Positions 42,920 to 57,667 are shown, numbered from the stretch's first letter. The stretch: 64,000 nucleotides of DNA from an uncultured Pseudomonadota bacterium (GCA_903959175.1 CAJBVW010000342.1:23432-87431); one strand, 5' to 3'. Notes: a model not told the origin generated them from the letters alone. A program made the numbers and translations.

Positions 42920-43801
42920 ATGACCACGTTGCCGGTCCCCCGCCCGACACGAAGCACCTTGTCGTCGAAGTTGTCGATCGCCGTCCTGGGCCTGATGGCC
43001 CTCTTGGCCTCGGCGCCTGAAGCCACCGCTGCCGACCATCCGGCCGGAACGGCGCTCGAGGAGATGAAGGGGAAGAAGCTCCCCGTAAACCTCATCCAGA
43101 ACAAGTTCTTCGTGAAGGCGAACCGTTTCGAGATCGCGCCGTCCATCGGCTACGTCCCGAACAACGCGTTCGTCACGAGCGTCTATGGCGGCGCCATCGC
43201 CGCCTACCACTTCAGCGACTCGTTCGCGGCGGAGGGTGCGTTCCTCTACGCGCCCAACACCGGCGCGGCGGGCATGAAGGGCCTGACGCAGACCCTCGTT
43301 GGCATCGCCTACGAAGGCAACAACGAGACCTCGTTCCGGCAGCCGCTCGACCGGCTCCAGCTCGGCGCGATCTTCTCCGCGCGTTGGTCGCCGGTCTACG
43401 GCAAGATCAACCTGATCGGCGAGGGCGTCCTCAACTTCGACGTCTACGGGACCGCCGGTGTCGGCCTCCTGTTGGTCACGAAGGACTTCGCCAGCATCAA
43501 CCCGGACTACACGGCCGGTGTGGAGGGCGCCGATCCGGCGATCCCCGCCATCACCCCGTCGACCGAGGCCTACCCCGCCCTCAACCTGGGCATCGGGCTG
43601 GACTTCTTCCTCACCCAGTCCATCGCGCTCAAGATCGACGCCCGCAGCGCGCTCTACATCGCGAACGAGCCGGACTACGGCAACAAGCTCGCCGACGGCA
43701 GCGCGGAGCCCCTCGAGAAACGTCTGTACAACACGTTCCTCACGACGGCCGGCGTCAGCATCTACATTCCGCGGATGAAGCCGCGCATGTTCAACTTCTA
43801 A
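42920..43801 (+). CDS. Outer-membrane beta-barrel protein, GltA/GltB (NfsA/NfsB)-like
   Basis: Signal peptide (...IAVLGLMALLASAPEATA), amphipathic beta-strand pattern and an aromatic C-terminus ...RMFNF. Paralogous to the next gene through shared blocks: IQNKFFVKANRFEIAPSIGYVPNN vs IQKKNFMKIHRYEVGPSLGFVAND, and SPVYGK vs SPIYGK. Confidence 0.75.
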   Translation: MTTLPVPRPTRSTLSSKLSIAVLGLMALLASAPEATAADHPAGTALEEMKGKKLPVNLIQNKFFVKANRFEIAPSIGYVPNNAFVTSVYGGAIAAYHFSDSFAAEGAFLYAPNTGAAGMKGLTQTLVGIAYEGNNETSFRQPLDRLQLGAIFSARWSPVYGKINLIGEGVLNFDVYGTAGVGLLLVTKDFASINPDYTAGVEGADPAIPAITPSTEAYPALNLGIGLDFFLTQSIALKIDARSALYIANEPDYGNKLADGSAEPLEKRLYNTFLTTAGVSIYIPRMKPRMFNF

Positions 43802-43814
43802 GGTCGGAGCGCTC

Positions 43815-44672
43815 ATGTCCATGTTCAGCCTCCCGCTGCTCGCGCTCTCCCTCGTCGGCCCCGCGCTCGCCGAGGACGCTCCTGCCGATCTGCCCGTCGT
43901 CACCGAAGCCTCCGCCGACGGCGTGGCCCAGGACGAAGAAGAAGACGACGCGCCCGAGGACTCCGTGAAGTCCGAGCGCGACTCCGTCAAAAAGGGGGAC
44001 GCCGTCTCCACCGCCCTCCCGGGCGAGGACGACAAGCGCAAGCGGATCATCAAGACGATCCAGAAGAAGAACTTCATGAAGATCCACCGCTACGAGGTGG
44101 GTCCGAGCCTGGGCTTCGTCGCGAACGATCCGTTCCTGAACCGCTACATCATCGGCGGCGTGTTCGACTACCACCTCACCGAGGTCTTCGCGGCCGAAGT
44201 GCAGATCGGCTACGCGCCCATCCTCGGCCAGGGTGGGGAGAACGACCCCGACTGGAAGGGTCTGTCGAAGCAGCTGCTCATTGAGAACAGCGTTTCGCCG
44301 GACATCTCCAAGCTGACCGCGCACGGCAGCGCCGCCCTCGCCTTCTCGCCGATCTACGGCAAGGCCGCGGTCGGTCGCAAGATCATCGCGTTCGACATCT
44401 TCGGCTACTTCGGCCTCGGTGTCACCGCGACCCAGGACGACCTCGTCGCCCTCCAGAACACCGACGACTCCGCCGTGCTCACCCAGAACCAGGTGCACCC
44501 CACCACGGTCATTGGCGGCGGCGCGCGCATCGCCTTCAACGAAGGCGTCGCGGCCCGCATCGAGGGCAAGTCCATGTCCTACATCGAGACCGTCAACTCC
44601 ACCACGCTGGAGATGAAGAACAACTTCATCGTCCAGGCCAACGTGTCCTTCTTCTTCCCGGGCATGAAGTGA
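43815..44672 (+). CDS. Outer-membrane beta-barrel protein, GltB/GltA (NfsB/NfsA)-like paralogue
   Basis: GGAG 5 nt upstream of ATG 43815. Signal MSMFSLPLLALSLVGPALA, an acidic/Lys-rich linker, then a barrel region homologous to the preceding gene. Confidence 0.75.
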   Translation: MSMFSLPLLALSLVGPALAEDAPADLPVVTEASADGVAQDEEEDDAPEDSVKSERDSVKKGDAVSTALPGEDDKRKRIIKTIQKKNFMKIHRYEVGPSLGFVANDPFLNRYIIGGVFDYHLTEVFAAEVQIGYAPILGQGGENDPDWKGLSKQLLIENSVSPDISKLTAHGSAALAFSPIYGKAAVGRKIIAFDIFGYFGLGVTATQDDLVALQNTDDSAVLTQNQVHPTTVIGGGARIAFNEGVAARIEGKSMSYIETVNSTTLEMKNNFIVQANVSFFFPGMK

Positions 44673-46549
44673 TGAAGACGCACCTCCTCCCCTTGGCCCC
44701 CGCGCTCGCGCTCGCCATGCTCTGGTCGCCCTCCGCTCACGCGCTGAGCTGCGACGAGATCATGAACATGGTGAACGTAAACGTCCCGGCGTCCATCGTC
44801 GTGGACACCATCGCCTCCTCCGGCGAGACGTTCAGCGCGGACGCGATCCGTTGCCTCACCAACGAGGGCGCGCCCGCCGAGATCGTCGCGGCCGCCAAGG
44901 CCCAGATGCAGAAGGCCGCGCCGGAGGACGACGCCCCCGTCCGCGGTGAGACCACCAAGTCCTCCAAGTCGAGCGGCAAGGCCACCGACGAAGAGTACGA
45001 GAACACCGAGGCCATCGGCGCCCCCAAGAAGTCCGGCGGCAAGTCGCTGCAGGACCTCCCGGAAGAGGGCACCGACGAGGACGAGGGGCGTGATCCCGAG
45101 GCCCTCGAGAGCGCGGTCAAGGCGTACAACGCCAAGAAGCCCCTCACCGCCAGCTACGAGCTCTTCCGTATGCTGCAGGAGAACCAGTTCCCCGACAAGG
45201 AGAGCAAGGTCCTCTACTATCTCGCGCGGTCGCTCTACGACCTCGAGATGTTCCACGCGTCGCAGTACTATTTCATCGAAGTGCTGAAGAAGGGGCCGTC
45301 CAACCCCTACTTCAAGTACGCGCTCCCCAAGCTCGTCAGCATCGCGAAGTTCACGGGTGACGAGTCCGATCTCGCCCGCATCGTCGCGAAGATCCCGCCC
45401 GAAGAGTTTCCCCGCTCCGCGCGCAACCAGCTCTACTATCTGCTGGGTGTTCGCCTCTACGAGCAGGACAAGCTCACCGAAGCCCGCAAGTACTTCGGTC
45501 AGGTGTCCGACAAGTCCGACCTGTACACCCGCTCGAAGTACTTCGAGGGGGTCATCTACAACAAGCAGGGCAAGCTGAAGAGCGCTGTCCGCTCGTTCAC
45601 GGACGTGGCGAAGACCGAGGCTACCGCCTCGACCCAGCAGGAGCTCGAGGAGCTCGATCGCCTCCGCGACCTCTCGCTGATGAACATCGCGCGCATCTAC
45701 TACAGCATCGAGAACTTCAAGGACGCGAACACGTACTACGGGTACGTCTCGCGCGAGTCCCGCTACTGGCCGCAGAGCCTGTTCGAGAGCGCCTGGTCGA
45801 ACTTCATGTTGTCCGACCTCAACCTGACGCTCGGGCAGCTCCTCACCCTGGAGAGCCCGTTCTACAAGCAGGACGAGTTCGTCCCCGAGGCCACCGTCCT
45901 CCGCGCGCTGACGTTCTTCAACCTCTGCGAGTACGAAGACGTCGACCGCCTCCTCCTCGACTTCGACGCGAACTATCGCCCGATGCACGCGGAGATGAAG
46001 GACTTCCTCAAGCAGTACTCGACAGAAGAAGGGCGCAAGCTCGCGGACCAGGCGTTCGACCGTTACTTCGGTGACAAGGCGCCGGACACCGTGCTGCCCA
46101 AGGCGATGTTCACGCGCATCCTGCGTGACCAGGAGCTCGCCGGCATCGTGACGCACCTCGAGATCATGGATCGCGAGGAGACGCTCATCGACTCGCAGAA
46201 GTCGCAGTGGAAGGACAGCGTGGGCGAGCAGCTCCACAAGGTCATCGCCGAGGATCGCGAGCGCCTCAAGCGCCGCGCTGGCCTCGCGCTGCTCCAGGAG
46301 ATGGTGACCATGACCACCTACCTGGGCGATCTGCTCACCCAGGCCGAGATCATCCGGTTCGAGGTCATCGACGCCAAGCGCGGCATCCTCAACTACATGA
46401 TGACGACCACCGACCTGTCGGACACCTCGAAGGAGACCGAGATCGACTTCTCGGTTTCCACCAACAAGATCTACTGGCCCTTCAACGGCGAGTTCTGGCA
46501 GGACGAGCTCGGGTACTATCGGTACACCGAGCAGGGTTCCTGCAAGTAG
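44669..46549 (+). CDS. Secreted TPR-like protein, GltC/NfsC-like
   Basis: The start (GTG 44669 or ATG 44672) overlaps the upstream stop. Signal ...LALAMLWSPSAHA. Acidic/Lys-rich linker, then helical-repeat (TPR-like) segments (YYLARSLYDLEMFHASQYYFIEVLKK, YYLLGVRLYEQDKLTEARKYF, YFEGVIYNKQGKLKSAVRSF). 626 aa. Confidence 0.7.
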   Translation: MMKTHLLPLAPALALAMLWSPSAHALSCDEIMNMVNVNVPASIVVDTIASSGETFSADAIRCLTNEGAPAEIVAAAKAQMQKAAPEDDAPVRGETTKSSKSSGKATDEEYENTEAIGAPKKSGGKSLQDLPEEGTDEDEGRDPEALESAVKAYNAKKPLTASYELFRMLQENQFPDKESKVLYYLARSLYDLEMFHASQYYFIEVLKKGPSNPYFKYALPKLVSIAKFTGDESDLARIVAKIPPEEFPRSARNQLYYLLGVRLYEQDKLTEARKYFGQVSDKSDLYTRSKYFEGVIYNKQGKLKSAVRSFTDVAKTEATASTQQELEELDRLRDLSLMNIARIYYSIENFKDANTYYGYVSRESRYWPQSLFESAWSNFMLSDLNLTLGQLLTLESPFYKQDEFVPEATVLRALTFFNLCEYEDVDRLLLDFDANYRPMHAEMKDFLKQYSTEEGRKLADQAFDRYFGDKAPDTVLPKAMFTRILRDQELAGIVTHLEIMDREETLIDSQKSQWKDSVGEQLHKVIAEDRERLKRRAGLALLQEMVTMTTYLGDLLTQAEIIRFEVIDAKRGILNYMMTTTDLSDTSKETEIDFSVSTNKIYWPFNGEFWQDELGYYRYTEQGSCK

Positions 46550-46632
46550 CCCTTCCCTTCATCCCGGGCGGCTCGAGAGCCGCCCCTCGTCGGCGGTCCC
46601 CGCTCGCCGGTCGCGGATCAGGAGTCTGAATC

Positions 46633-49600
46633 ATGGAACGTACGTTTGTCCCTCGCGTCGGCCTCGCGCTGAGCCTCCTGCTCGGCGCAGGCGCTTTGGA
46701 GGTCGCGATCGCGCCCTCTGCCGCACACGCGCAGAGCCGTGACCAGAAGGCCGAGCGCCGCGTCCTCAAGGCGACGGACGTGGACGCCGCGACTCAGCAG
46801 TCGGAAGCGCTCCGCGCCGCCGCCCGCGCCGCCCGTCTCGAGTCGATCTCCCGCTTGAAGGAGATCATCTCTGGCACGACGGCCCAGGGCGACCAGAAGG
46901 CCGAGATGCTCCTGCGCCTCGCGGACCTCTACTTCGAAGAGGGCCGTGACCTGTACCTCTCCGAGATGGCCGTCTTCCAGAAGGCCATCGACGAGGAGTT
47001 CAACAAGCCCAACGGCAACACCGACAACGTCAAGCAGGCCGACTACGTCAAGGAGTCGCGCGGCTGGCAGGACAAGAGCATCAAGCTCTACAAGCAGATC
47101 CTCGCGAGCTACCCGCAGTACCAGCGCTCGGACGAAGCGACGTTCTACCTCGGTCAGGCGCTCGCTGACACCAACCAGACCGACCCGGCCAACGCCGAGT
47201 TCACCCGTCTGGTGAAGACCTACCCCGAGAGCAAGTTCGTCCCGGACGCCTACGTGCTCATCGGCGAGTACTGGTTCGAAAAGAACGAGGCCTACAAGGC
47301 GCTCAACGCCTACCAGAAGGCCGCCGCCTACAAGGACCACGAGAAATACGCCTTCGCGAACTACAAGCTCGCCTGGTGCTACTACAACGTGGGTGACTAC
47401 GCGACCGCCATCGACAAGATGAAGGCCGTCGTCTCCTACTCCATGAGCGGCGGCGCGGTCGGAGCGGACGGCAAGCCGCTCATGAAGACCCTCCAGCTCC
47501 AGGACGAAGCCCTCAAGGACCTCGTCCGCTTCTTCGCCGACGCCGGCGAGATGGACGAGGCCTACGAGTACTTCAACAAGCTCGGCAAGAAAGAGCTCAT
47601 CCGCGACATGCTCAAGCGCCTCGCGGCGACCTATTTCGAGCAGGGTAAGTTCGAGTCCGCCATCCAGACGTATCGCCGCCTGATCGCCGAGGATCCCCAG
47701 GGCCCCGCCGCCCCGGACTTCCAGAACGAGATCATCCAGGCCTACACCAAGATGGGCAAGAAGGAGGACACGCTCGCCGAGATCGACCGTCTCCTCAAGA
47801 ACTACGGCAAGCAGAGCTCCTGGGCGCGCACCAACGCCGCCAACCAGGACGCCGTCAAGACCGCCGACGAGCTGATCGAGAAGGGCCTGCGCACCGTCGC
47901 GATCAACTACCACAACGAGGCGAAGAAGCTGAAGACCGGCCCCCAGGCCGCCTCCACCTACGCGCTCGCGGAGAAGGCCTACGAGGTCTACATCCAGGAG
48001 TTCCCCGACTCCAAGTACAGCTACGACGTGCGGTACTCCTACTCGGAGCTCCTCTACACGATCAAGAAGTACGACTCCGCGTACGACCAGTACATGAAGG
48101 TCGTCAGCATCGACAAGAAGGGCCAGCACTCGCGCTTCTGCGCCGAGTCCGCCATCTTCGCCGCTGAAGAGATGATGAAGAGGGAAGCGAAGAACGGCGG
48201 TGGCGGGGCCGGCCCCGACCCCGGCAAGAAGACCGATCCGCTCCCGCTCTCCGATTGGGAGCAGAAGCAGCTCAAGGCGTTGGACCAGTTCCGCGAGCTC
48301 TTCCCGACCGATCCGAAGGCGCGCAACATCATCTACAAGTCCGCGTACCTCCTGTACAACAAGAACCAGTTCAAGGAGGCCTCGGAGCGCTTCAACGTCG
48401 TCATCTCCATGGACCCCAAGTCCAAGGAGGCCGAGCAGGCCGCCAACCTCATCCTCGACAGCTTCGCGCTCGTCGAGGATTGGGACAGCCTGAAGAAGAA
48501 CTCCAAGTTCTACTTCGACCAGGTGGGCCTCGGGTCCGACTCCTTCAAGAAGGAGGTCTACGGCATCTACGAGAACGCCTCGTTGAAGTTCATCGAGATC
48601 GACTTCAAGAAGACCTCGGACAAGAAGCAGGGCGCCGCGAACTTCTGGGCCTTCTACCAGGAGTTCCCGGGCTCCCAGAACGCCGACCTCGCGTTGAACA
48701 ATGCCAGCGTGTACTACCACGACCTCGGCAACGTCACCGACTCGATGAAGGTGCGCCTCGAGCTCATCAACAAGTTCCCCAAGTCCAAGTTCTACAAGGA
48801 CCAAGTGGCCTCGCTCGGGTTCGACTACGAGTCCATCGCGAACTTCCCCGAAGCCGCGAACTGGTACGAGAAGCTCTTCGCCCTCGACAAGACGCACGCA
48901 AGCGCGTCCGACGCGATCTTCTCCGCTGCGCTCTTCCGCAACTCCCTCGGTCAGTGGGAGCAGGCGATCAAGAACTACCAGCAGTACATGACGGCCTTCC
49001 CGGACAAGCCGAACCTCAACGGCATCCAGCTCGACATCGGCCGCATCTACGAAGAGCATGAGAAGTACGCGGAGGCCTCCAAGGTCTACCTGTCCTTCTA
49101 CACGCCGAAGCCGACGGTGAAGGGGCAGCCCCCGCAGGTCATGGGCTCGCTCGACGAGCTGATGTACGCCCGCCTTCACTACGGCCTCCTCATGGACAAG
49201 CTGGGTCAGGGCGCGAAGGTCGGGCAGCACTGGAAGGAGACCATCGCCTTCTTCGACGCCCAGAAGAAGGCCGGCGCGACCTTCGAGAGCTCGGTCGAGT
49301 ACGTGGCCCAGATCATGTACATCCTCGCCGAGCCCCAGTACCAGGCCTACATGGCCATGAAGATCAGCGGCCCCGGGGACAAGAAGCTCAACCAGAAGCA
49401 GACCGACAAGCTCCTGACCGACCAGCTCGTCACCAAGGTCAAGGCCATGGGCGAGGTCGAGAAGACCTACGCCGCCATCATCGGCACCGGCGCCGGTGAG
49501 TGGGGTCTCGCCGCGCTCGCTCGCCTCGGCTCCGCGTACGAGAACCTGAGCGAGTCGCTCGAGGGCTCCTGGATCCCGACGTACCTCACGGCGGACCAGA

Positions 49601-49845
49601 AGGAGCTCTACACGATGGCCCTGCAGGACAAGGCCTACCCGCAGATCGAGAAGGCCGCCGCGGCCTACTCGGCGGCGCTCGGGAAGTCGTACGAGCTCAA
49701 CCTCTACAACGACAACACCGCGAACGCGACGCGCCGCCTCGGCGTCCTCCGCCCCGACGACTACCCGGGTCTCTTCGAGAAGATCCCCGAGCCCCGTTAC
49801 TCGGCGCCCTCGACGTTCGCCGGCAACTTCGAATCCGAGCCGTAA
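46633..49845 (+). CDS. Large secreted multi-TPR protein, GltD(AgmU)/NfsD-like
   Basis: CAGGAG 8 nt upstream of the ATG. Signal ...LLLGAGALEVAIAPSAAHA. 1070 aa of TPR-type repeats (ATFYLGQALADTNQ, AYVLIGEYWFEKNEAYKALNAYQKA, ANYKLAWCYYNVGDYATAIDKM ...). Confidence 0.75.
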   Translation: MERTFVPRVGLALSLLLGAGALEVAIAPSAAHAQSRDQKAERRVLKATDVDAATQQSEALRAAARAARLESISRLKEIISGTTAQGDQKAEMLLRLADLYFEEGRDLYLSEMAVFQKAIDEEFNKPNGNTDNVKQADYVKESRGWQDKSIKLYKQILASYPQYQRSDEATFYLGQALADTNQTDPANAEFTRLVKTYPESKFVPDAYVLIGEYWFEKNEAYKALNAYQKAAAYKDHEKYAFANYKLAWCYYNVGDYATAIDKMKAVVSYSMSGGAVGADGKPLMKTLQLQDEALKDLVRFFADAGEMDEAYEYFNKLGKKELIRDMLKRLAATYFEQGKFESAIQTYRRLIAEDPQGPAAPDFQNEIIQAYTKMGKKEDTLAEIDRLLKNYGKQSSWARTNAANQDAVKTADELIEKGLRTVAINYHNEAKKLKTGPQAASTYALAEKAYEVYIQEFPDSKYSYDVRYSYSELLYTIKKYDSAYDQYMKVVSIDKKGQHSRFCAESAIFAAEEMMKREAKNGGGGAGPDPGKKTDPLPLSDWEQKQLKALDQFRELFPTDPKARNIIYKSAYLLYNKNQFKEASERFNVVISMDPKSKEAEQAANLILDSFALVEDWDSLKKNSKFYFDQVGLGSDSFKKEVYGIYENASLKFIEIDFKKTSDKKQGAANFWAFYQEFPGSQNADLALNNASVYYHDLGNVTDSMKVRLELINKFPKSKFYKDQVASLGFDYESIANFPEAANWYEKLFALDKTHASASDAIFSAALFRNSLGQWEQAIKNYQQYMTAFPDKPNLNGIQLDIGRIYEEHEKYAEASKVYLSFYTPKPTVKGQPPQVMGSLDELMYARLHYGLLMDKLGQGAKVGQHWKETIAFFDAQKKAGATFESSVEYVAQIMYILAEPQYQAYMAMKISGPGDKKLNQKQTDKLLTDQLVTKVKAMGEVEKTYAAIIGTGAGEWGLAALARLGSAYENLSESLEGSWIPTYLTADQKELYTMALQDKAYPQIEKAAAAYSAALGKSYELNLYNDNTANATRRLGVLRPDDYPGLFEKIPEPRYSAPSTFAGNFESEP

Positions 49846-49854
49846 GGGATCCCG

Positions 49855-51381
49855 ATGCGCACCCTCTCCTTTGTTTTGTTGCTCGCGCTGACGGGCTGCC
49901 CCAAGACCGAAGCTCCGGTCGACCCCAACGCCGTCGTTCAGGTGGACCCCAAGAAGGTCTTCACCGAAGGCGTCGCGCTGCTCAAGGCGTCGAGCGTCGA
50001 CTACGCCGCGGCCCTGGTGAAGTTCGAGGCAGCCACCGTCGCGGACCCCGGCTTCGCCAAGGCCTGGTACAACGCCGGCTACTGTGCCGAGCGCACGGGT
50101 GATCTCGTCAAGGCCGAGGCGAACTATCGCAAGGCCCTCGAGCTCCAGCCCGCGTACAACTCGGCGCTCTTCAACCTCGGCCTCGTGCTCGGCGCGTCCG
50201 GCAAGGGGCCCGAGGCGGTGACCCTCTACAAGGGCTTCATCGAGAAGAACCCGGCCGACCTCCAGGCTCGCGCCAACCTCGTGGACGTGCTCACCGGCGC
50301 GAAGCTCTACGACGAGGCGATCGCGCAGGCCCAGGAGATCCTGGCCCGCGATCCGAAGAACGTCGGCGCCTACCGGAACCTGTCCCGCGCCTACTACGCG
50401 CAGGGCAACTTCGAGATGAGCCTCCTCTGCGCCCAGAAGGCCAAGACGTTGAACGACGCCGACCCCGGCATCTACAACAACATGGGCGTCATCTGGCTGC
50501 AGAAGGGCAACGAGGCCTCCGCGATCGAGGAGTTCAAGACCGCGATCAAGGTCGACCCGGCCAACATGCCGGCCAACCTGAACCTCGGCTACATCGCCCT
50601 CGACTCGGGTGACTACGCGCTCGCCAAGACCGCGTTCGAAGCCGTCGTGAAGCAGTACCCGGGCAACACGGACGCGCAGATGGGGTACGCCATCTCGCTC
50701 CGCGGCCTCCAGGACTACGACGGCGCCACCAAGATCTACGACGTGCTCCTCGCGAAGGATCCGAGCAACCGGACCATCGCGTACAACGCGGCGATGCTCT
50801 ACCAGAAGTACACGAAGAACTTCGACAAGGCGGCGAAGGTACTCGACGAGTACCAGAAGGGCGCCGGCACGCTGTCCCCGAGCGACGAGTTCTTCACCTG
50901 GAAGGACTCCGTCGAAAAGGACCGCGAGATCGAGCGCAAGCGCCAGGACGAGATCAAGCGGCTCGCCAAGGAGAAGGAAGAGCGCGAGAAGCGCCAGGCC
51001 GAGCAGCTCAAGAAGATGGCCGACAACATCGCCGCGATGGAGAAGGACCTCCAGAACGAGTGTCTCCTCGCGACGGACGCCGGCATGATGGCCCAGATGG
51101 TCATCGAGCAGGCCAAGCCGGTCATCGCCGAGAAGGACCTCCAGATGGTCGGCGACATGGAGACCTTCGTGACGGACTCCATGGCCCAGCTCGAAGCCGC
51201 CAGGGCCACCTGCGGCACCGGCGCCCCTGCGGACGGTGGCGCCCCGCCTCCCGCCGACGGTGCGGCCCCCGCAGGCGCAGGCACGGAGCCCGCTCCGGCC
51301 CCCGCGCCCGCTCCGGTCCCCACGCCCGCTCCGGTCCCCACGCCCGCTCCGGTCCCCACGCCCGCTCCGGCGCCCCAGTAG
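49855..51381 (+). CDS. TPR lipoprotein with coiled-coil and Pro-rich tail, GltE(AglT)/NfsE-like
   Basis: Lipobox MRTLSFVLLLALTGC. TPR repeats (AWYNAGYCAERTGDLVKAEANYRKALELQP, ALFNLGLVLGASGKGPEAVTLYKGFIEKNP ...). KE-rich coiled coil EKDREIERKRQDEIKRLAKEKEEREKRQAEQLKK. Tail PAPAPAPAPVPTPAPVPTPAPVPTPAPAPQ. Confidence 0.75.
   Translation: MRTLSFVLLLALTGCPKTEAPVDPNAVVQVDPKKVFTEGVALLKASSVDYAAALVKFEAATVADPGFAKAWYNAGYCAERTGDLVKAEANYRKALELQPAYNSALFNLGLVLGASGKGPEAVTLYKGFIEKNPADLQARANLVDVLTGAKLYDEAIAQAQEILARDPKNVGAYRNLSRAYYAQGNFEMSLLCAQKAKTLNDADPGIYNNMGVIWLQKGNEASAIEEFKTAIKVDPANMPANLNLGYIALDSGDYALAKTAFEAVVKQYPGNTDAQMGYAISLRGLQDYDGATKIYDVLLAKDPSNRTIAYNAAMLYQKYTKNFDKAAKVLDEYQKGAGTLSPSDEFFTWKDSVEKDREIERKRQDEIKRLAKEKEEREKRQAEQLKKMADNIAAMEKDLQNECLLATDAGMMAQMVIEQAKPVIAEKDLQMVGDMETFVTDSMAQLEAARATCGTGAPADGGAPPPADGAAPAGAGTEPAPAPAPAPVPTPAPVPTPAPVPTPAPAPQ
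51307..51378 (+). repeat. Perfect 18-bp coding tandem repeat (cccgctccggtccccacg x3 plus a partial copy) encoding PAPVPT
   Basis: Read directly: units at 51307-51324, 51325-51342 and 51343-51360, then a diverged partial unit running to the stop codon. Confidence 0.9.
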
Positions 51382-51400
51382 CCACCCTCCGGCCGACACA

Positions 51401-51441
51401 GCCCCGCTCCGAGCATGCTCGGAGCGGGGCTTTCGGTTTTT
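51401..51441 (+). terminator. Rho-independent terminator after the GltE-like gene
   Basis: Perfect 30-nt palindrome GCCCCGCTCCGAGCATGCTCGGAGCGGGGC (51401-51430) followed by TTTCGGTTTTT. Confidence 0.75.
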
Positions 51442-51576
51442 CGGCCGGTGGCGCCTGGCGCGGCGCGCTCCCTGGCCCGGAATCCGCTACGAGCCGCGTC
51501 GTACGTGCACAAGCCCCAAGTCGGGGGTTCGAGGCGGCACCGCGGAGCACCGCGGCAAGTTCCGCTAGACAGAAGT

Positions 51577-51606
51577 TTGACCGGAACCCCCGCAGCATCC
51601 TATTGT
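51577..51606 (+). promoter_or_regulatory. Candidate sigma70-type promoter for the gltF/gltG-like unit
   Basis: TTGACC (51577-51582), 18-nt spacer, TATTGT (51601-51606). This is an AT-rich hexamer pair in an otherwise GC-rich intergenic region, about 120 nt upstream of ATG 51727. Confidence 0.3.
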
Positions 51607-51655
51607 CCTAAGCTTCCGGGCACGCGAGAATGTGCCCGCAGCGCCTCGCCCGCCT

Positions 51656-51715
51656 CCGGCTTCGCAACAGCCTCATCCGGCTTCGCAACAGCCTCGTCCG
51701 GCTTCGCAACCTCAT
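51656..51715 (+). repeat. Three direct tandem repeats (21, 21, 18 bp) in the leader of the GltF-like gene
   Basis: ccggcttcgcaacagcctcat (51656-51676), ccggcttcgcaacagcctcgt (51677-51697), ccggcttcgcaac---ctcat (51698-51715). The array ends 11 nt before ATG 51727. Confidence 0.9.
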
Positions 51716-51726
51716 CGGGAGCCTCA

Positions 51727-52008
51727 ATGACCCGCACTCTCCTCTCTCGCATCCTCCTCGCCAGCGTCGTCGCCGGTACCCTCGTAGGTTCTGCCTTCGC
51801 GCAGGACGAAGAGGGCGGCGGGGAGCGCAAGGTCTCCTACAAGCAGAAGACCGAGATCGACTTCGAAGGCCTCGACGTCAGCGGTGAGCTCGTCAAGCCC
51901 CAGAGCGCGTTGGTGCTCGACCGTAAGAAGGCCAGCTTCAACCCCCTCATCAAGCTGCGTGAGGACTTCAACGCCGAGATGGAGCAATCCGTCGACGAAG
52001 TGAAGTAG
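51727..52008 (+). CDS. Small secreted protein in the GltF/NfsF position
   Basis: GGGAG 5 nt upstream of ATG 51727. Signal MTRTLLSRILLASVVAGTLVGSAFA. The mature part is about 68 aa (KTEIDFEGLDVSGELVKPQSALVLDRKKASFNPLIKLREDF). Upstream in-frame codons were rejected as coding. Confidence 0.6.
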   Translation: MTRTLLSRILLASVVAGTLVGSAFAQDEEGGGERKVSYKQKTEIDFEGLDVSGELVKPQSALVLDRKKASFNPLIKLREDFNAEMEQSVDEVK

Positions 52009-52114
52009 TCCTCCCGACCCATCCGGGGGGCTCCCGCCCCCTCCCGCGCCCGCTCCGTCCTCCGGAAAGGGCGCGCAACCTCAGGGGCCGCATCTGCGGC
52101 CACAAGGGCTTCCC

Positions 52115-53971
52115 ATGGCCGGTTCGTCCCCCGGTTCGCTCGTTCTCACCTTCGAGATCTTCAACGGCGGCGACTTCGTCCGCCGCGAGGAGCTGTCCGC
52201 CGAGAGCGTGACGATCGGCAAGGGCCCCGCGGCGATGCTGCGGATCGAGGACCCCTCGCTGCAGGACCTGCACGCGGTGCTCAACGTCAACGAAGACGGG
52301 ACCGTGCAGCTCCTCGACCTCGTCGGGGACCACAGCACCCAGGTCAACGGCGCGGCCGTCAGCAACGTCGTGCTCGCCAACGGGGACACCCTCGGCTTCG
52401 GCGCCGTGCGCGTCGTGGTCCGCATCACCGACTCGGCCGCCTTCGCGGACGACGAGGCCACTCGCGTCGACGCGCCGGGCATCCCGGCCGACATCGGCGC
52501 GGGCTCCGAGTCCGAGGCCGGCGAGACCGAGGGCTTCGGCGGCGACGACGAGCCCACCGAAGACGTGATGGCCTTCGTGATGCGCGCAAGCGCCTCCGCG
52601 ACGGACGCCGCCTCCGACCGCTCCAAGGGCCGCCACCTCGAGGTCGCGCAGGTGTTCGGGGACGCCGTCCTCGACATCAAGCACGTCACCAGCGGCTCCG
52701 TGCTCCTCGGTACCTCCACCATCCCCATCGTGGGCATGGACGACAAGGCCGCGAACAAGAACAACTTCTTCGTCCCGCTCGAGTTCCTCCCCAACGACAA
52801 CTACGCCCTTTTCCAGAACCAGGGCGGTCAGTGGGTGTGCAACGCCAGCGACAAGTGGGCCGGCTTCGTCGACATCGGCGAGACCCGCCGCACCTTCGCC
52901 GAGCTCGTCGCCGAGGGTAAGGCCAAGAAGTCCGGGAACACCATCACGGTGCAGATCCCGGAGGACGCCCGCCTCGTCGTCGACCTCGGGAACACCATCT
53001 TCGTGGCCCACCAGGCCTACCCGGGCAAGAAGGCCGTCGCCGCCTTCGGCGCCGACATCGACTACCCCTTCCTCGGTATCATCGCGTTCATGACGTTCGT
53101 GACGTTCATGTTCGGCGTCGCGGTCGCCGTCCTCCCCCCTCCCGACGCCTCGGAGATGAAGCTCGACGACCATATGGTCGAGCTCCTCCTCGAGAAGAAG
53201 GAAGAGATCAAGGACGAGAAGAAGCGCGACGACAACCCGGACGCCGGCGAAGGCGCCAAGGCGAAGAAGGAAGAGGGCAAGGTCGGCAAGAAAGACGCGA
53301 AGATGGACAAGGCCAAGGGCGACAAGGTCCAGATGCAGAAGCAGCAGCTGGACAAGGAGATCGCGGAGAACGCCGGCGTTCTCGGCGCTCTCCGCGACGA
53401 CTCCGCGCTCGACAGCGTCCTGGGCTCGACCGGCCTCAACGCCGACATGATGAACGGCATCGGCGGTCTCATCGGCAACAAGGGCACGCAGATCGGCTCC
53501 GGCGGTCTCGGCGCGCGCGGCTCCGGCCTCGGCGGCGGCGGCACGGCGGAAGGCCTCGGCGGTCTCGGCACCAAGGGCCGTGGGTCCGGCGCCTCCGGCT
53601 ACGGCTCCGGCGGCGGCAACTTCGGCTCCAAGGGTGACGGCGGCATCGGCACCGTCGGTGGCGACCCCATCATCCTCGGCGCGCTCGACAAGTCGCTCAT
53701 CGACGCCGTCATCAAGCGCAACATGAGCCAGATCCGCTACTGCTACCAGCGCGAGCTCACCAAGAACCCCGCGCTCGGCGGCAAGATCACGGTCAAGTTC
53801 GTCATCGCCAAGGACGGCACGGTGTCCTCCGCGACCACCAAGACCACCACGATGAACAACCCCGCCGTCGAGTCCTGCATCAACGGCCGGTTCATGCGGT
53901 TCCAGTTCCCCGAGCCGAAGGGCGGCGGCATCGTCATCGTCTCCTACCCCTTCATCTTCTCGCCCGGGTAG
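52115..53971 (+). CDS. FHA - TM - K/E- and Gly-rich spacer - AgmX/PglI-type (TonB-C-like) C-terminal domain protein, GltG(PglI)/NfsG-like
   Basis: FHA pattern (VTIGKGPAAMLRIEDPSLQDLHAVLNV..GTVQLLDL.GDHSTQVNGAAV...LANGDTLGFG). TM FLGIIAFMTFVTFMFGVAVAVL. Lys/Glu-rich then Gly-rich spacer. Tail IDAVIKRNMSQIRYCYQRELTKNPALGGKITVKFVIAKDGTVSSA...AVESCINGRFMRFQFPEPKGGGIVIVSYPFIFSP. Confidence 0.8.
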   Translation: MAGSSPGSLVLTFEIFNGGDFVRREELSAESVTIGKGPAAMLRIEDPSLQDLHAVLNVNEDGTVQLLDLVGDHSTQVNGAAVSNVVLANGDTLGFGAVRVVVRITDSAAFADDEATRVDAPGIPADIGAGSESEAGETEGFGGDDEPTEDVMAFVMRASASATDAASDRSKGRHLEVAQVFGDAVLDIKHVTSGSVLLGTSTIPIVGMDDKAANKNNFFVPLEFLPNDNYALFQNQGGQWVCNASDKWAGFVDIGETRRTFAELVAEGKAKKSGNTITVQIPEDARLVVDLGNTIFVAHQAYPGKKAVAAFGADIDYPFLGIIAFMTFVTFMFGVAVAVLPPPDASEMKLDDHMVELLLEKKEEIKDEKKRDDNPDAGEGAKAKKEEGKVGKKDAKMDKAKGDKVQMQKQQLDKEIAENAGVLGALRDDSALDSVLGSTGLNADMMNGIGGLIGNKGTQIGSGGLGARGSGLGGGGTAEGLGGLGTKGRGSGASGYGSGGGNFGSKGDGGIGTVGGDPIILGALDKSLIDAVIKRNMSQIRYCYQRELTKNPALGGKITVKFVIAKDGTVSSATTKTTTMNNPAVESCINGRFMRFQFPEPKGGGIVIVSYPFIFSPG

Positions 53972-53979
53972 CGCGCGCC

Positions 53980-54045
53980 CTCTCCCACCCCGGTGGGAGA
54001 GCCGGTCACCGCGAACGGCGCCTTCGGGCGCCGTTCTTCGTTTTT
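53980..54045 (+). terminator. Double-hairpin Rho-independent terminator after the GltG-like gene
   Basis: Hairpin 1: CTCTCCCAC-cccg-GTGGGAGAG (53980-54001). Hairpin 2: GAACGGCGCC-ttcg-GGCGCCGTTC (54013-54036), followed by TTCGTTTTT. Confidence 0.75.
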
Positions 54046-54228: not shown

Positions 54229-55659
54229 ATGTCTGAAGCGACCCTCTCCCCCTCGACCGTCGGGCCCTGGGACGACACCCTGGCCACCCATGTGCTCGAC
54301 GTGCTGCTCCGCGCGACCGACCGCCCGGACCCGAGCGCGGACCGCGGCCAAGAGAAGGTGTTGGAGGTCGCACAGGTCTTCGGGGACGCCGTGATCGACC
54401 TGAAGCACTTCGCGCCCGGCCGCGCCGTGCGCCTCGGCGCCACCCTCGTGCGCACCTTCCGCGGCACCCGCATGCAGGAGGACTTCTTCGTCCCCACCTC
54501 GCTGCTGGCGACCGCGAGCCACCCCCTGTTCGAGGCCGACGGCGCGGGCTGGGTGTGCGTGGTGCGCAAGGACTGGGACGGCTTCGTGGACGGCCCCGCC
54601 GGCCACCGGTCGCTCGCCACCCTCGCCGCGCTCGTCACCCCCGACGCCGAGGACCTGATCCGGGTGCCCGTGGGGCCGGAGGACCGCGCCGTCGTCATCG
54701 TGGGGAGCACCACCTTCGTGGCGCGCCCGGTCCACCCCAGCAAGCGGGTGCCGATCTACGGGGGCGACGGCATCGACTACCCGATGCTCGGGATCACCGG
54801 CTTCATCGGCTTCGCCGCGATGCTGCTCGGCGTGGCGCTCTCGGTCATCCCCTCTCCGCCGCGCTCCTCCGGGATGGACGAGCAGGACCGCCTCGTGCGC
54901 ACCCGCCTCGAGTTGCCCCCGGCCCCGGCCCCGGCCAAGGTCGCGGACGCCCCGGGCGCCAAGGCCGCCGTGAAGGGCCCGGAGGGAAAGATGGGCAAGC
55001 AGGACGCAGAGGACCCGCACGACCGCTCGCCGATCGAGAAGGTCAAGCAGGACCAGCTCGCGGCCGCGCAGGCGGGGGTGCTCGGCGCGCTCAGCAAGAA
55101 CGCCACCCTCGCCTCCCTCCTGGGCGACAGCGCCCTGCCCGGGGACATCACCACCGGGGTCGGCGCCATGATCGGCGCGCGCGCCACCCAGCAGGGCGCG
55201 GGGGGGCTCGGGGCCCGGGCCGGGGGCTTCGGAGGCGGCGGCACCGCCGAGGAGGCCGGGGGCTTCCACCCGCGCGGCCGCGGCGAGGCGCGCACCCTCG
55301 CGCAGGGCCCCGGCGGTGGCAAGCCCCCCGGCGAGATCCAGACCCCGGAGGGCGGGATCGTCATCGGCGCGCTGGACCGCTCGCTCATCGACGCGGTGGT
55401 CAAGCGCAACATGAGCCAGATCAAGTACTGCTACCAGCGCGAGCTCGCGAAGAGCCCCAGCCTCGCAGGCAAGGTCACCGTGAAGTTCACCATCGCGGGC
55501 GACGGCTCCGTCTCCTCGGCCATCACCAAGAGCTCGACCCTCGGTAGCCCCGCGGTAGAGTCCTGCATCAACGGTCGTTTCCTGCGGATGAGCTTCCCCG
55601 AACCGATGGGCAACGGGCTCGTGATCGTGTCCTACCCCTTCCTGTTCTCGCCCGCCTAG
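54229..55659 (+). CDS. FHA-less paralogue of the GltG-like protein (cytoplasmic domain - TM - spacer - AgmX/PglI-type tail)
   Basis: ATG 54229 (GGAG 5 nt upstream) preferred over the ORF-track start at 54100. Shares blocks with the preceding gene: LEVAQVFGDAVIDLKH, GWVC...KDWDGFVD, IDYPMLGITGFIGFAAMLLGVAL (TM), and tail IDAVVKRNMSQIKYCYQRELAKSPSLAGKVTVKFTIAGDGSVSSA...AVESCINGRFLRMSFPEP. No FHA region. Confidence 0.75.
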   Translation: MSEATLSPSTVGPWDDTLATHVLDVLLRATDRPDPSADRGQEKVLEVAQVFGDAVIDLKHFAPGRAVRLGATLVRTFRGTRMQEDFFVPTSLLATASHPLFEADGAGWVCVVRKDWDGFVDGPAGHRSLATLAALVTPDAEDLIRVPVGPEDRAVVIVGSTTFVARPVHPSKRVPIYGGDGIDYPMLGITGFIGFAAMLLGVALSVIPSPPRSSGMDEQDRLVRTRLELPPAPAPAKVADAPGAKAAVKGPEGKMGKQDAEDPHDRSPIEKVKQDQLAAAQAGVLGALSKNATLASLLGDSALPGDITTGVGAMIGARATQQGAGGLGARAGGFGGGGTAEEAGGFHPRGRGEARTLAQGPGGGKPPGEIQTPEGGIVIGALDRSLIDAVVKRNMSQIKYCYQRELAKSPSLAGKVTVKFTIAGDGSVSSAITKSSTLGSPAVESCINGRFLRMSFPEPMGNGLVIVSYPFLFSPA

Positions 55660-55666
55660 ATTCTCG

Positions 55667-55702
55667 GCAGGCCCGGATCTCTCCGGGCCTGCTTTCCGTT
55701 TT
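55667..55702 (+). terminator. Rho-independent terminator after the GltG paralogue
   Basis: GCAGGCCCGGA-tctc-TCCGGGCCTGC (55667-55692) followed by TTTCCGTTTT. Confidence 0.75.
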
Positions 55703-55747
55703 GCGCTGGCTCGTGCTACTGTACGCCGCCCTCCGTCGGAGTCGTTG

Positions 55748-56497
55748 ATGATGGTCCTGGCGCTGTCCGCCACCTTGCTCTCCTCGCCGCTGGTCGTGTC
55801 CTCCGCGTATGCGCAGGACGATGAAGAGGAAAATTTCCTCGAGGAAGACAACGGCAAGAAGACGAAGAAGCCCAGCCGAGCCGCGCGCGCCGCTGCTGAT
55901 GACGCCGGGGTGATCCGCGAGATCAACCGTGGCGTCTACGCCAAGGCCTCCGCGGGCTTGGGTGCCTATCTCCTCAACTTCTCGCGCTCGGTGAACGCCG
56001 GCACGAACGTCACGCTCGCCGTCGGGCAGGACTTCGTCGACACCGAGAAGCAGTCGATGGCCTGGGAAGTCGGCATCGGCCAGGGCGTCCACAACGGCGC
56101 CGCCTGGTACGAGCAGAAGGAATACGGCTGCTACACCCTCGGCACCGGCTCCGAGCCCTGCACCGAGGGGGACCTGCGCACCTACACGCTGCAGGCCAAC
56201 TACGAGATCTCCTTCTACCCGGTGCGCCGCTTCGGCATCGGCGCGCGCGTCGGTGCCGGCGTGCTCTACAGCCCGCTCCTCATCGAGCCCACCGCCTACC
56301 TGGACGACGTGCTCTCCGAGTACGGGGGCGACCCCGGCCTGCACAGCTCGCCCAAGCCGATCGTCTTCGCCGGGCCGACGTTCGAGTACTACACCAAGCT
56401 GTCCCACTTCTCCATCGGCGTCGACGTCGACATCGTCTACGGGATCGGCTGGGACCTCGGCCTGAACGGCACGGGCAACCTCAAGTACACCTTCTAG
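55748..56497 (+). CDS. Outer-membrane beta-barrel protein, GltH/NfsH-like
   Basis: ATG 55748 (GGAG 6 nt upstream; the ORF-track start at 55745 is a TTG). Signal MMVLALSATLLSSPLVVSSAYA, an acidic/Lys linker, alternating beta-strand pattern, and the OMP-type terminus ...GNLKYTF. Confidence 0.7.
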   Translation: MMVLALSATLLSSPLVVSSAYAQDDEEENFLEEDNGKKTKKPSRAARAAADDAGVIREINRGVYAKASAGLGAYLLNFSRSVNAGTNVTLAVGQDFVDTEKQSMAWEVGIGQGVHNGAAWYEQKEYGCYTLGTGSEPCTEGDLRTYTLQANYEISFYPVRRFGIGARVGAGVLYSPLLIEPTAYLDDVLSEYGGDPGLHSSPKPIVFAGPTFEYYTKLSHFSIGVDVDIVYGIGWDLGLNGTGNLKYTF

Positions 56498-56527
56498 GCA
56501 CGCCATCGGAGAAGGAGGGCCCATCCC

Positions 56528-57667
56528 ATGTTCGCATCGCTCCTCCTCCTCTCGGGTTGCATCGGTCTCGACAAGCTCCCCGGCCGGACAACCGACGCCG
56601 GGAGCGACTCGGGCTCCACCTCGACCGTCGGCGGTCTCGAGGTCGGTGCCGCGTCGATCGACTTCGGCAATGTCGCGGTCGGCAGCGCCCTCGGGAGGGA
56701 GCTCGTCCTCACGAACACGGGCTCCGACCCCGTCGGTGTAGATCTCTCCGTGGATGGAGACGCCTTCGCGCTCGACACTGCCGCGGTGCGCGTCGAGACC
56801 GACGCAATCGTGTTCGTCACCTTCGCGCCGCGCACAGATGGCCCGTACGATGGCACGCTCACCATCGCGACGGATGGGGACACGCTCGACATCCCGCTCA
56901 CGGGCATCGGCGGCGAGGGCGACGCCGACACGGACACCGACGCCGACACGGACACCGAGGGCGGCCCCGGCCCGAACATCAGCGTCACGCCGATGCGCTA
57001 CGACTTCGACCGCGTCGACATCGACGGCACCGAGACCACCACGTTCACCGTGAGCAACACGGGCGACGAGGATCTCCTCATCAGCGACGTCGTGTCCAGC
57101 GCCGGCGTGTGGACCACCGGCGGCACGCTCTCCCCGCCGCAGGTGCTCTCGCCGGGCGCGAACAAGCTGCTCGAGGTCACCTTCGCGCCGACCGCGGAGA
57201 CCGCCTACAACGGCACCATCACCATCGAGTCCGACGATCCGGACCACCCGTCGCTCGACCTCACCGTCGAGGGCGAGGGCGTCGACCTCTGCGACATCTG
57301 CGCGCCCCTCATCGACATCGACACCGGCGCCGACCCCTACGCCATCACCGACTTCTTCTCGCTCTTCGGCAGCACCGACACGCGGACCATCACCGTCCAG
57401 AACATCGGCGACATGGACCTCACCGTGAGCACCGTCGAGGTCAACAACGACATGCTCGCCACCTGCGGGGACTTCACGCTCGGTGGCTGGCGCGGCGCGC
57501 AGACCCTCGCCCCCTGGGCCACGACCACGTTCACCCTCTCGTACCGTGCCACGGAGAGCTGCCTTGAGATCGCGCAGGCCGCGTTCGACGCGAACGTCGC
57601 CCATGTGCTCTCCGACGATACCAGCGAGAGCGACTGGGTGATCGAGCTCTCGGGTGCCGCCCTCTGA
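56528..57667 (+). CDS. Lipoprotein with three Ig-like (ASH / choice-of-anchor-D-like) modules
   Basis: AAGGAGGG upstream. Lipobox MFASLLLLSGC. Three modules of the pattern (I/Y)DFG.V..G......L.(L/V).N.G...L.(I/V) ... G.(L/I)TI.(T/S)D, separated by a DADTDTDADTDTE linker. Confidence 0.7.
   Translation: MFASLLLLSGCIGLDKLPGRTTDAGSDSGSTSTVGGLEVGAASIDFGNVAVGSALGRELVLTNTGSDPVGVDLSVDGDAFALDTAAVRVETDAIVFVTFAPRTDGPYDGTLTIATDGDTLDIPLTGIGGEGDADTDTDADTDTEGGPGPNISVTPMRYDFDRVDIDGTETTTFTVSNTGDEDLLISDVVSSAGVWTTGGTLSPPQVLSPGANKLLEVTFAPTAETAYNGTITIESDDPDHPSLDLTVEGEGVDLCDICAPLIDIDTGADPYAITDFFSLFGSTDTRTITVQNIGDMDLTVSTVEVNNDMLATCGDFTLGGWRGAQTLAPWATTTFTLSYRATESCLEIAQAAFDANVAHVLSDDTSESDWVIELSGAAL

Follow-up and report, generated by a model that had tools for sequence, protein, structure and literature searches.

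The stretch of DNA analysed here, referred to throughout as the window, spans 64,000 nucleotides of an assembly deposited as an uncultured Pseudomonadota bacterium (GCA_903959175.1, CAJBVW010000342.1:23432-87431), and between positions 42920 and 57667 it carries ten consecutive genes on the + strand (Table 1). A sequence-only reading had described this block as a complete trans-envelope machine of the Glt/Nfs type known from Myxococcus xanthus. All ten open reading frames (ORFs) were recovered, and their sizes and domains agree with that description, as do the signal peptides of A1, A2, C, D, F and H and the lipoboxes of E and Ig, which are seen in the translations; the barrel, TPR, FHA and TonB-C-like folds were borne out by Pfam, NCBIfam and AlphaFold/Foldseek. 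Every position is homologous to the corresponding Glt component, in the Glt/Nfs order, as judged from NCBIfam models and from BLASTP comparisons with GltD-H of Myxococcus faecalis and with other Glt-like loci. The block holds a D-type TPR protein, a G-type protein with FHA, transmembrane and TonB-C-like parts, the TPR proteins C and E, paired barrels and F; paired GltA/GltB barrels and GltF are among the group A genes of Luciano 2011 (PMC3169522). By these homologies the locus is a real, divergent member of the Agl-Glt/Nfs family in the broad sense. The related loci to which it is compared below draw on a scan of GTDB, one genome per species, in which an alignment of 13 G sequences served as the query; the best 80 loci (47-93% identity in G) all lie in metagenome-assembled genomes (MAGs) and all belong to the window's own clade.

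Table 1. Genes and transcription signals of the block and its immediate surroundings; positions are counted from the first nucleotide of the window.
Feature	Position	Strand	Description
A1	42920-43801	+	GltA/GltB-type outer-membrane beta-barrel; 293 aa, signal peptide, C-terminus MFNF
A2	43815-44672	+	second GltA/GltB-type outer-membrane barrel, A1 paralogue; 285 aa, signal peptide, acidic N-terminal extension
C	44669-46549	+	GltC/NfsC-type secreted TPR protein; 626 aa, signal peptide
D	46633-49845	+	GltD (AgmU)/NfsD-type large periplasmic TPR protein; 1070 aa, signal peptide
E	49855-51381	+	GltE (AglT)/NfsE-type TPR lipoprotein; 508 aa, lipobox LTGC
F	51727-52008	+	GltF (CglF)/NfsF-type small secreted protein; 93 aa, signal peptide
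G	52115-53971	+	GltG (PglI)/NfsG-type inner-membrane protein; 618 aa
G2	54229-55659	+	FHA-less G paralogue; 476 aa
H	55748-56497	+	GltH (CglE)/NfsH-type outer-membrane barrel; 249 aa, signal peptide, C-terminus KYTF
Ig	56528-57667	+	lipoprotein with three HYDIN/ASH-type immunoglobulin (Ig)-like (choice-of-anchor D) domains; 379 aa, lipobox LSGC
Hairpin after E	51400-51431	+	terminator-like; 14-pair stem, 11 GC pairs, T-run; 19 nt past E stop
Hairpin after G	54013-54036	+	terminator-like; 10-pair stem, 8 GC pairs, T-run
Hairpin after G2	55666-55693	+	terminator-like; 12-pair stem, 9 GC pairs, T-run
rplC	57827-58504	+	ribosomal protein L3; TIGR03625 247 bits, cut-off 143; directly downstream of the block
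exbB	37092-37721	+	ordinary TolQ/ExbB scores, 110 and 92 bits
exbD	37721-38158	+	ordinary TolR/ExbD scores, 94 and 76 bits
tonB	38155-38910	+	
TonB-dependent-receptor-like gene	38907-41540	+	N-terminal TonB_C, CarboxypepD_reg and Plug domains
u6	41540-42394	+	lipoprotein; 284 aa, lipobox LLAC, no family match

At the outer membrane, A1 and A2 match the NCBIfam model TIGR04565 (OMP_myx_plus, a myxobacterial outer-membrane barrel domain) with 92.5 and 76.8 bits against a cut-off of 60, and in the Glt-like locus L088 the same model matches both A and B. The two are paralogues, as had been proposed (27.5% identity over 247 residues, E=3e-25). By BLASTP A1 is 25-29% identical to the A and B proteins of L088 and of two further Glt-like loci, L085 and L089 (E down to 7e-16), and A2 is 43-83% identical across the related loci. 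The AlphaFold model of A1, built from an alignment of A1 and A2 only, has low confidence (a pLDDT, or predicted local distance difference test score, of 52.5) and shows eight long strands. Its top Foldseek matches are all 8-stranded outer-membrane barrels, among them OmpA (E=5e-7), the barrel of OprF (TM 0.76), OmpW, NspA, Ail and OmpX; the fold agrees with the report that GltA and GltB are OmpA-like barrels (PMC4488436). The barrel H (residues 58-249) matches the full length of the CglE model NF033755 with 108.4 bits, above the equivalog cut-off of 70. The Myxococcus GltH and GltF proteins themselves score 177 and 142 bits on the CglE and CglF models respectively, so that these are the GltH and GltF models.

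The putative periplasmic proteins C, D and E all match TPR families of Pfam, D several of them. For C, the GltC model NF033756 gives 279 bits (E=9e-83, residues 75-625; equivalog cut-off 450), and identity to the C proteins of L085, L088, L089 and L090 is 26-31%, with the best E-value, 9e-70, for L089; the C protein of L088 exceeds the GltC cut-off with 616 bits. D matches only generic TPR models because NCBIfam has no GltD model, and the true Myxococcus GltD likewise matches generic TPR models only. In BLASTP, D is 28.4% identical to M. faecalis GltD over 1067 residues (E=2e-110) and matches the D proteins of other loci with E-values down to 2e-144. E scores 168.7 bits on the GltE model NF033758 (E=2e-49; cut-off 225) and is 29.8% identical to Myxococcus GltE over 295 residues (E=1e-39, BLASTP). 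The small protein F reaches 59.6 bits on the CglF model NF033764 (E=2e-16; cut-off 90), with 31.9% identity to Myxococcus GltF over 91 residues (E=1e-11, BLASTP). A second F-like gene lies upstream of F in 16 of 78 related loci; in the 345-bp spacer between E and F no decayed second F was found, the relatives' F-like proteins matching F only.

E also has a charged helical segment and a Pro-rich tail of the type (A/V)PTPAP. The tail is encoded by an 18-bp tandem repeat (51288-51370, 4.6 copies, 96% match) which is likely to be a site of length variation; E orthologues measure 481-587 residues, with an outlier of 764 in L078. In one related locus, L080, the D-like and E-like matches fall within a single uninterrupted frame of 1631 codons, the result of D and E having fused or of a stop codon having been lost.

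G combines an N-terminal FHA domain (residues 32-96, E=4.8e-9 in Pfam), a second cytoplasmic beta domain, a transmembrane helix, a linker rich in Lys/Glu and Gly, and a TonB-C-like tail. The GltG model NF033760 matches residues 11-617 with 329.5 bits (cut-off 650), and identity to Myxococcus GltG is 33% over 404 residues (E=5e-39, BLASTP). G2 aligns to residues 144-617 of G (46% identity over 478 residues, E=5e-107) and to positions 231-648 only of the GltG model, with 187 bits against the same cut-off. Both proteins carry the AgmX/PglI C-terminal domain (110.9 bits in G, 102 bits in G2; cut-off 40), and it is only this common domain that the GltJ model matches, with 36-38 bits. G2 therefore lacks the part of G that holds the FHA domain, but retains the membrane-proximal cytoplasmic beta domain, the transmembrane helix, the Lys/Glu- and Gly-rich linker and the TonB-C-like tail. 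For G2, AlphaFold2 modelling on an alignment of 51 homologues places the beta domain in blocks 41-170 (pLDDT 88-96, strands 44-168), the transmembrane helix at 184-206, a disordered linker at 233-375 and the C-terminal domain at 380-476 (pLDDT >90). In Foldseek the C-terminal domain matches TonB C-terminal domains (6sly, 5lw8, 7zc8, 1xx3) with a probability of 1.0 and E-values of 6e-3 or weaker, and it also resembles TolA C-terminal domains; the beta domain matches FHA and SMAD-type folds (4h87, IRF IAD). The published GltG analysis also had weak E-values of this kind, and 6sly is the entry cited there for GltJ (PMC11761067). As modelled, G2 has the published GltG domain plan (PMC11761067) except that the FHA domain at the N-terminus is missing.

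In the M. xanthus model the N-terminal FHA domain of GltG binds GltI, and the membrane-proximal FHA-like domain together with the transmembrane helix binds AglR. Two TonB-C-like proteins, GltG and GltJ, are predicted to lie on opposite sides of GltD (PMC11761067). Because M. xanthus uses this pair, we propose that G2 is a second TonB-like arm that would fill the role of GltJ. The two are built differently: GltJ carries ZnR and GYF domains, in its place the locus has an FHA-less G paralogue, and G2, unlike GltJ, retains the region that in GltG binds the motor.

The presence of a second G-type protein had been listed among the differences from the known systems. The protein is there, and it lacks the FHA domain, but it is not peculiar to this locus, since 21 of 82 related loci contain an FHA-less paralogue of G. 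In the window's subclade its place is behind G, in another subclade it is between E and F. The alignment of these paralogues to G starts at about residue 107-314, in most cases at 140-175. On the common region the G2-type genes form a group of their own outside all main G genes of the window clade, which makes the duplication an old one; a recent tandem copying of G was rejected on the same grounds. An FHA-less copy (509 residues) also stands right after G in L090, a locus of another clade, and it groups with the G of L090 itself; by this grouping, the FHA-less form arose independently in that lineage. G2 evolves faster than G, with 69-72% against 89-93% identity in the nearest relatives.

The gene order of the block is conserved far beyond chance. 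Upstream of G, counted in the 55 loci with at least 9 kb of sequence on that side, A2-C-D-E-F is found in 49 and A1 in 44; downstream, counted in the 61 loci with at least 4.5 kb, H is found in 52 and a second G gene in 18. Conservation of the block in related genomes, on which the sequence-only reading had staked its interpretation, is thus borne out. The same reading had asked for phylogenies, and these support a separate clade outside the Myxococcus Glt group but do not place it relative to Nfs, references for which are lacking from the tree. Specifically, D, E and G of the window, of 20 clade members and of six reference loci were joined (1999 trimmed columns; neighbour joining with Kimura distances, 200 bootstraps), with L080 excluded on account of its single D-E frame. 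The window clade came out as monophyletic in 200/200 bootstraps. Support was equally full (200/200) for a separate group of Myxococcus, L091 and the Vulgatibacter-like L085, whether L088 is counted in or not. The window clade thus falls outside the group of characterised Glt clusters, and over D, E and G the window is about 29% identical to Myxococcus Glt. Look-ups of G proteins from candidate sister groups returned an isolated gene (P0393), a variant that contains GltI (P0251) and a Glt-type D-to-I cluster (P0407).

Public data contain more than 120 clusters close to G, every one of metagenomic or MAG origin, and at 50% clustering the G family counts 1213 representatives with E<=1e-30. By their record titles the source samples are lakes, rivers, oceans, sludge, springs and vents. 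The clade includes the MAG UBA796, and GTDB places the class UBA796 in the phylum Myxococcota_A (bioRxiv 10.64898/2026.07.10.737566). Several records with this high-GC, Myxococcota-type locus have titles that name them as MAGs of Klebsiella pneumoniae, Bifidobacterium breve, Enterobacterales, Cognaticolwellia or Alphaproteobacteria (among them L012, L013, L014, L040, L081 and L047); these names are evidently wrong and unfit for taxonomy.

The relation to the characterised clusters is a distant one. Our reference, the Glt cluster L086 in the complete genome of Myxococcus faecalis, reads GltD (1195 residues)-E-F-G (651 residues, named GltG by NCBI)-H-a 548-residue protein-GltI (4091 residues). 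Among the window's proteins scored against the corresponding models, only H passes its equivalog cut-off (108/70), and the others fall short (GltC 279/450, GltE 169/225, CglF 60/90, GltG 330/650). No GltI/J/K-like gene was seen in the window by NCBIfam and Pfam scans, as the sequence-only reading had noted, and the same scans of the other proteins in the 64 kb found no CglB, AglZ or Agl motor either. A giant GltI-like gene follows in L086 and L088-L091, whereas none was found after H in about 50 related loci. That reading had also suggested that the block could be a third variant of the machine. This is not supported, and the one-block layout is not distinctive: the family is already known to be modular, M. 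xanthus having the additional paralogous clusters G4 and G5 and Bdellovibrio four sets (PMC3169522), and one-block layouts, besides the published Nfs and Bdellovibrio clusters, also occur in L085 (A-B-C-D-E-F-G, with a G that passes the GltG cut-off at 767 bits) and in L088 (A-B-C-D-E-F-G-H-GltI).

The glt and nfs clusters are each other's closest relatives and go back to a recent duplication in a terminal deltaproteobacterial branch (PMC3169522, PMC3858216). Since that duplication is terminal and the window clade lies outside the Myxococcus group, the clade is, most likely, a co-orthologue of Glt and Nfs alike and a member of neither. This bears on the principal alternative, an Nfs-like machine in which an Agl-type motor moves the A-H complex round the cell and so spreads or compacts a secreted polysaccharide (coat, capsule or slime). 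It owes its standing as main rival to a gene content equal to that of Nfs and to the clade-wide absence of GltI: the block has exactly the Nfs set, with A-H together and no I, J or K (PMC3858216), the recovered Glt-type loci L086 and L088-L091 all have the giant GltI-like gene after G/H while the window clade does not, and a published account sees the family as transporting sugar polymers at the surface (PMC3858216). However, no polysaccharide export genes of the exo/Wza type adjoin the block, the recent terminal glt/nfs duplication (PMC3858216) sits badly with a clade outside the Myxococcus Glt group, and L085 is also a one-block A-to-G locus and yet its G passes the GltG equivalog cut-off, so that the lack of I, J and K does not mark Nfs orthology. 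We regard an Nfs-like machine as possible but on balance unlikely. The caution that cargo and function cannot be read from the sequence holds, in that a gliding-type and an Nfs-like output are not decidable on this basis.

At the opposite pole, the block could correspond directly in function to the Glt gliding motor of M. xanthus, focal adhesions included, with AglRQS, GltI/J/K, CglB and AglZ/MglA encoded elsewhere in the genome. H passes the GltH (CglE) cut-off, A to G are all present, AglRQS together with GltD, E, F, G, C, A and B has been suggested to mark a potential glider (PMC3169522), and M. xanthus itself has its genes split over three loci. Nevertheless, five of six Glt-specific models score well below their equivalog cut-offs, the D+E+G identity and the separate clade described above set the locus apart from Myxococcus, and the GltI gene seen in every Glt-type locus recovered is missing after H from the related loci. 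In addition, a survey of Myxococcota MAGs found A-motility homologues to be widespread only in Myxococcia, Kuafuiibacteriia and UBA727 (bioRxiv 10.64898/2026.07.10.737566). Full equivalence with the gliding motor therefore seems to us quite improbable.

The last gene of the block encodes the Ig-repeat lipoprotein, which matches PF22544 three times (E=1.5e-22, Pfam) and the NCBIfam model choice_anch_D with 108.9 bits. It is found after H in 37 of 61 related loci and is absent from the most divergent members of the clade. Its evolution is fast, with 30-70% identity where G has 47-93%, which would fit a surface-exposed protein. BLASTP found no counterpart in the Glt-type loci L086, L088 and L091. 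The sequence-only reading had counted this lipoprotein as an extra relative to Glt, and by its distribution it is a clade-specific accessory; from the gene neighbourhood we would guess that it is a candidate cargo or adhesin.

Directly downstream, the gene for ribosomal protein L3 keeps its adjacency in 50 of 61 related loci, across 47-93% identity in G. It stands alone, outside any S10-type operon, and CoA-transferase genes follow on the other strand. A second choice-of-anchor-D/HYDIN-type Ig-domain protein (59766-61988, +, 740 residues) is encoded 2 kb downstream, beyond the L3 and CoA-transferase genes, and the related locus L001 has a 618-residue counterpart of it at the same place.

The motor of this family is TolQR-like (PMC11761067). 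The only MotA/ExbB-ExbD pair in the window is encoded upstream of the block, on the same strand, and one may ask whether this ExbB-ExbD-TonB operon works with the block, ExbB and ExbD being its motor and the whole 20-kb region a single uptake or secretion system. In at least 25 related loci the lipoprotein gene u6 (35-70% identity), the last of the operon, is the immediate upstream neighbour of A1, and the order lipoprotein-barrel-barrel-C recalls gltK-gltB-gltA-gltC of M. xanthus (PMC4488436). However, the five upstream genes overlap stop-to-start (at 37721, 38155-38158, 38907-38910 and 41540) and are translationally coupled; because of these overlaps, and because the operon has its own TonB and receptor, it appears to be a self-sufficient TonB system. 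The ExbB-ExbD-TonB set is also not directly upstream of the block, as had been claimed, since the receptor and lipoprotein genes (38907-42394) and a gap of 526 bp intervene before A1. Moreover, its ExbB and ExbD have ordinary TolQ/ExbB and TolR/ExbD scores, there is one ExbD and not two, and the ExbB is only 25% identical to the ExbB-like protein encoded after G in L082, described below. As for u6, it has no family match, its candidacy as a GltK homologue was dropped since no similarity to anything Glt-related was found, and its adjacency is weak evidence of function because the unrelated L3 gene is likewise conserved on the other side of the block. No TonB-receptor matches were found upstream in related loci, though the flanks of these loci end at u6, and a metagenome scan with u6 returned two short contigs only. 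Taken together, a motor role for this operon is very unlikely, and the operon is most likely a separate TonB uptake system, with the motor of the block encoded elsewhere in the genome.

What such a motor may look like is suggested by L082, a MAG locus of the window clade, where a paralogous FHA-containing G (50% identical to the window's G) is followed, within 9989-13960, by a MotA_ExbB protein (231 residues) and two ExbD proteins (168 and 194 residues). Both ExbD proteins have an Asp in the transmembrane helix, and they have diverged so far that no NCBIfam model matches them; NADH dehydrogenase genes are found upstream, with no further Glt-like gene in the vicinity. By its gene content this arrangement of a G, a divergent ExbB-like and two ExbD-like proteins is the AglR-AglQ-AglS pattern.

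GC content in the window is very high (0.62-0.76), which makes mechanical ORF lists noisy. A filter on codon-position GC reduced them to a single clean run of + strand genes between 37.1 and 58.5 kb, and long antisense ORFs (for example 46618-51399 on the - strand) were rejected on this measure as high-GC artefacts. The starts of F, G2 and H are internal ATGs of longer mechanical ORFs, and the resulting lengths agree with those of orthologues in relatives; in L001, for example, these have 92, 480 and 248 residues. Overall GC dips in the block, to 0.62-0.68 against 0.72-0.76, and is 0.62-0.64 within C, D and E (44000-50000) against 0.72-0.76 upstream. A foreign origin was nevertheless rejected: the third-position GC of 0.85-0.95, which marks the + frames of the block as coding, equals that of the flanks, so the genes are native. 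The dip resides in codon positions 1 and 2 (0.57 and 0.37 in D) and reflects the richness of the TPR proteins in Lys, Glu, Tyr and Asn.

Terminator-like sites show no excess over shuffled sequence in the region as a whole, but the three strongest lie right after E, G and G2 (Table 1), which suggests that the block may be divided into up to four transcription units, putatively A1-E, F-G, G2 and H-Ig. The spacer between E and F (51382-51726) is the longest gap of the block; it carries the region's only sigma-70-like promoter match (51577-51606) and a 21-bp tandem repeat (51655-51710, 2.7 copies, 97% match).

Elsewhere in the window we find genes for SelB, a Ser/Thr kinase, a PEGA protein, LarC, LarB, a MopE-motif protein, PBP1A, a glycosyltransferase, a CoA transferase and IMP dehydrogenase. 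Two further regions are unrelated to the block: at 6114-10064 (+) a protein of 1316 residues with about 20 acidic double-disulfide repeats (NF033662, 443 bits), and at 28663-36485 (+) an alpha-2-macroglobulin (1869 residues) followed by PBP1C (553 bits), the usual bacterial pairing. An Rfam scan of 36000-59000 found only a tRNA, namely a tRNA-Cys (GCA) gene at 36521-36595 (+), just upstream of exbB. The ORF at 36546-37067 (173 residues), also upstream of exbB, is probably not a gene because it starts inside this tRNA gene and has no family match.

By its gene content the locus encodes a periplasmic and outer-membrane transducer together with inner-membrane adaptors. To call it a complete machine was an overstatement, since the window holds no motor, GltI, GltJ, GltK, CglB or AglZ. 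With good confidence we take the block to be the transducer part of an envelope-spanning, force-transmitting machine of the Agl-Glt/Nfs family, in a deep-branching clade of uncultured Myxococcota type. How it would work, from the motor and the protein contacts to cargo and phenotype, we infer by analogy with the M. xanthus model (PMC3169522, PMC3858216, PMC11761067). A TolQR-like motor driven by protons, with its genes outside the window, would engage the transmembrane helix and the membrane-proximal beta domain of G, and probably those of G2. The long disordered linkers of G and G2 would span the periplasm, so that their TonB-C-like tails could dock on D, with G2 as the second arm, analogous to GltJ. 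D, E, F and C would form a periplasmic scaffold, which C may link to a platform in the outer membrane, composed of the 8-stranded barrel pair A1/A2 and the barrel H. This platform would then move a surface cargo, for which our best guess is the Ig-repeat lipoprotein, in an adhesin-based, gliding-type surface translocation.

Several observations weigh against this interpretation. No motor with one TolQ-like and two TolR-like proteins, as in AglRQS, lies within the 64-kb window, and GltI, GltJ, GltK and CglB are likewise missing from its proteins. Because all scores but that of GltH are below the cut-offs, same-function orthology to Glt is not established, and even for H the BLASTP match to Myxococcus GltH covers the last 46 residues only (E=8e-8). 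The A1 model has the low confidence noted above. The D+E+G tree contains no Nfs, G4/G5 or Bdellovibrio sequences and was computed by neighbour joining only. The assignment of the cargo is based on neighbourhood only, the Ig gene is missing in 24 of 61 related loci, and the same neighbourhood logic would implicate the adjacent L3 gene too. Finally, many of the source MAGs come from lakes or oceans, where gliding is not an obvious trait.

A more far-reaching version of the proposed machine is that the clade has a self-contained minimal form of it, whose cargo is the Ig lipoprotein and not a CglB-type VWA adhesin or a polysaccharide, and which requires the FHA-less arm G2. FHA-less arms would then have two or more independent origins, one or two of them near the clade's base and one in the L090 lineage. 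We consider this version doubtful. If it is true, a two-armed G-type transducer would be a convergent design rule of the family, paralleling GltJ, and uncultured aquatic Myxococcota of the UBA796 type would gain a surface-transport or gliding apparatus with which MAG surveys have not credited them.

The family, its modularity and its spread beyond Myxococcus were already known (PMC3169522, PMC3858216). New is a conserved clade in uncultured, mostly aquatic Myxococcota of the UBA796 type, whose MAGs are common in lakes, rivers, oceans and sludge, and within it a conserved GltH-type barrel, recurrent FHA-less G paralogues and a clade-specific Ig lipoprotein. The evolutionary scenario of 2011 has gltH as a late acquisition (PMC3169522); conservation of the GltH-type barrel in this clade points instead to an earlier origin of gltH, or to horizontal transfer. 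The recurrence of FHA-less G proteins bears on how the work is divided between GltG and GltJ in the M. xanthus model. The practical value lies in comparative and ancestral reconstruction and in the annotation of Myxococcota MAGs, and no new mechanism is opened.

Compared with the Agl-Glt system of M. xanthus, the locus has homologues of GltA/B and of C-H with the same domain plans (an FHA/transmembrane/TonB-C-like G, paired OmpA-like barrels, the TPR proteins C, D and E, of which E is a lipoprotein) in the order of gltB/A-C plus gltD-H. It differs in forming one block instead of two, in the Ig lipoprotein after H, and in its sequence divergence and separate clade. With Nfs, which was compared by description only, it shares the eight component types A-H in one block without I, J and K (PMC3858216), a layout that is found outside Nfs as well, as L085 shows for A-G; its surroundings hold no exo-type polysaccharide genes, and G2 and the Ig lipoprotein are extra. 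The G4/G5 clusters and Bdellovibrio Bd0828-0838 resemble it, by description, as modular one-block sets of A/B, C, D, E, F and G (PMC3169522), but the Bdellovibrio cluster is reported without GltH and with agl genes (PMC3169522), whereas the present locus has H and no motor. The uncultured lineages L085, L088, L089 and L090 have the same modular block, A/B-C-D-E-F-G with or without H and I, and L088-L090 carry the giant GltI-like TPR gene that the window clade does not. With the TonB-ExbBD and Tol-Pal systems, finally, the likeness lies in the C-terminal domains of G and G2, which have the TonB/TolA C-terminal fold. Unlike TonB and TolA, G and G2 have cytoplasmic FHA-type domains and, following the published model, would dock on a periplasmic TPR scaffold and not on the TonB boxes of receptors, while the real TonB system of this region is the separate operon upstream.

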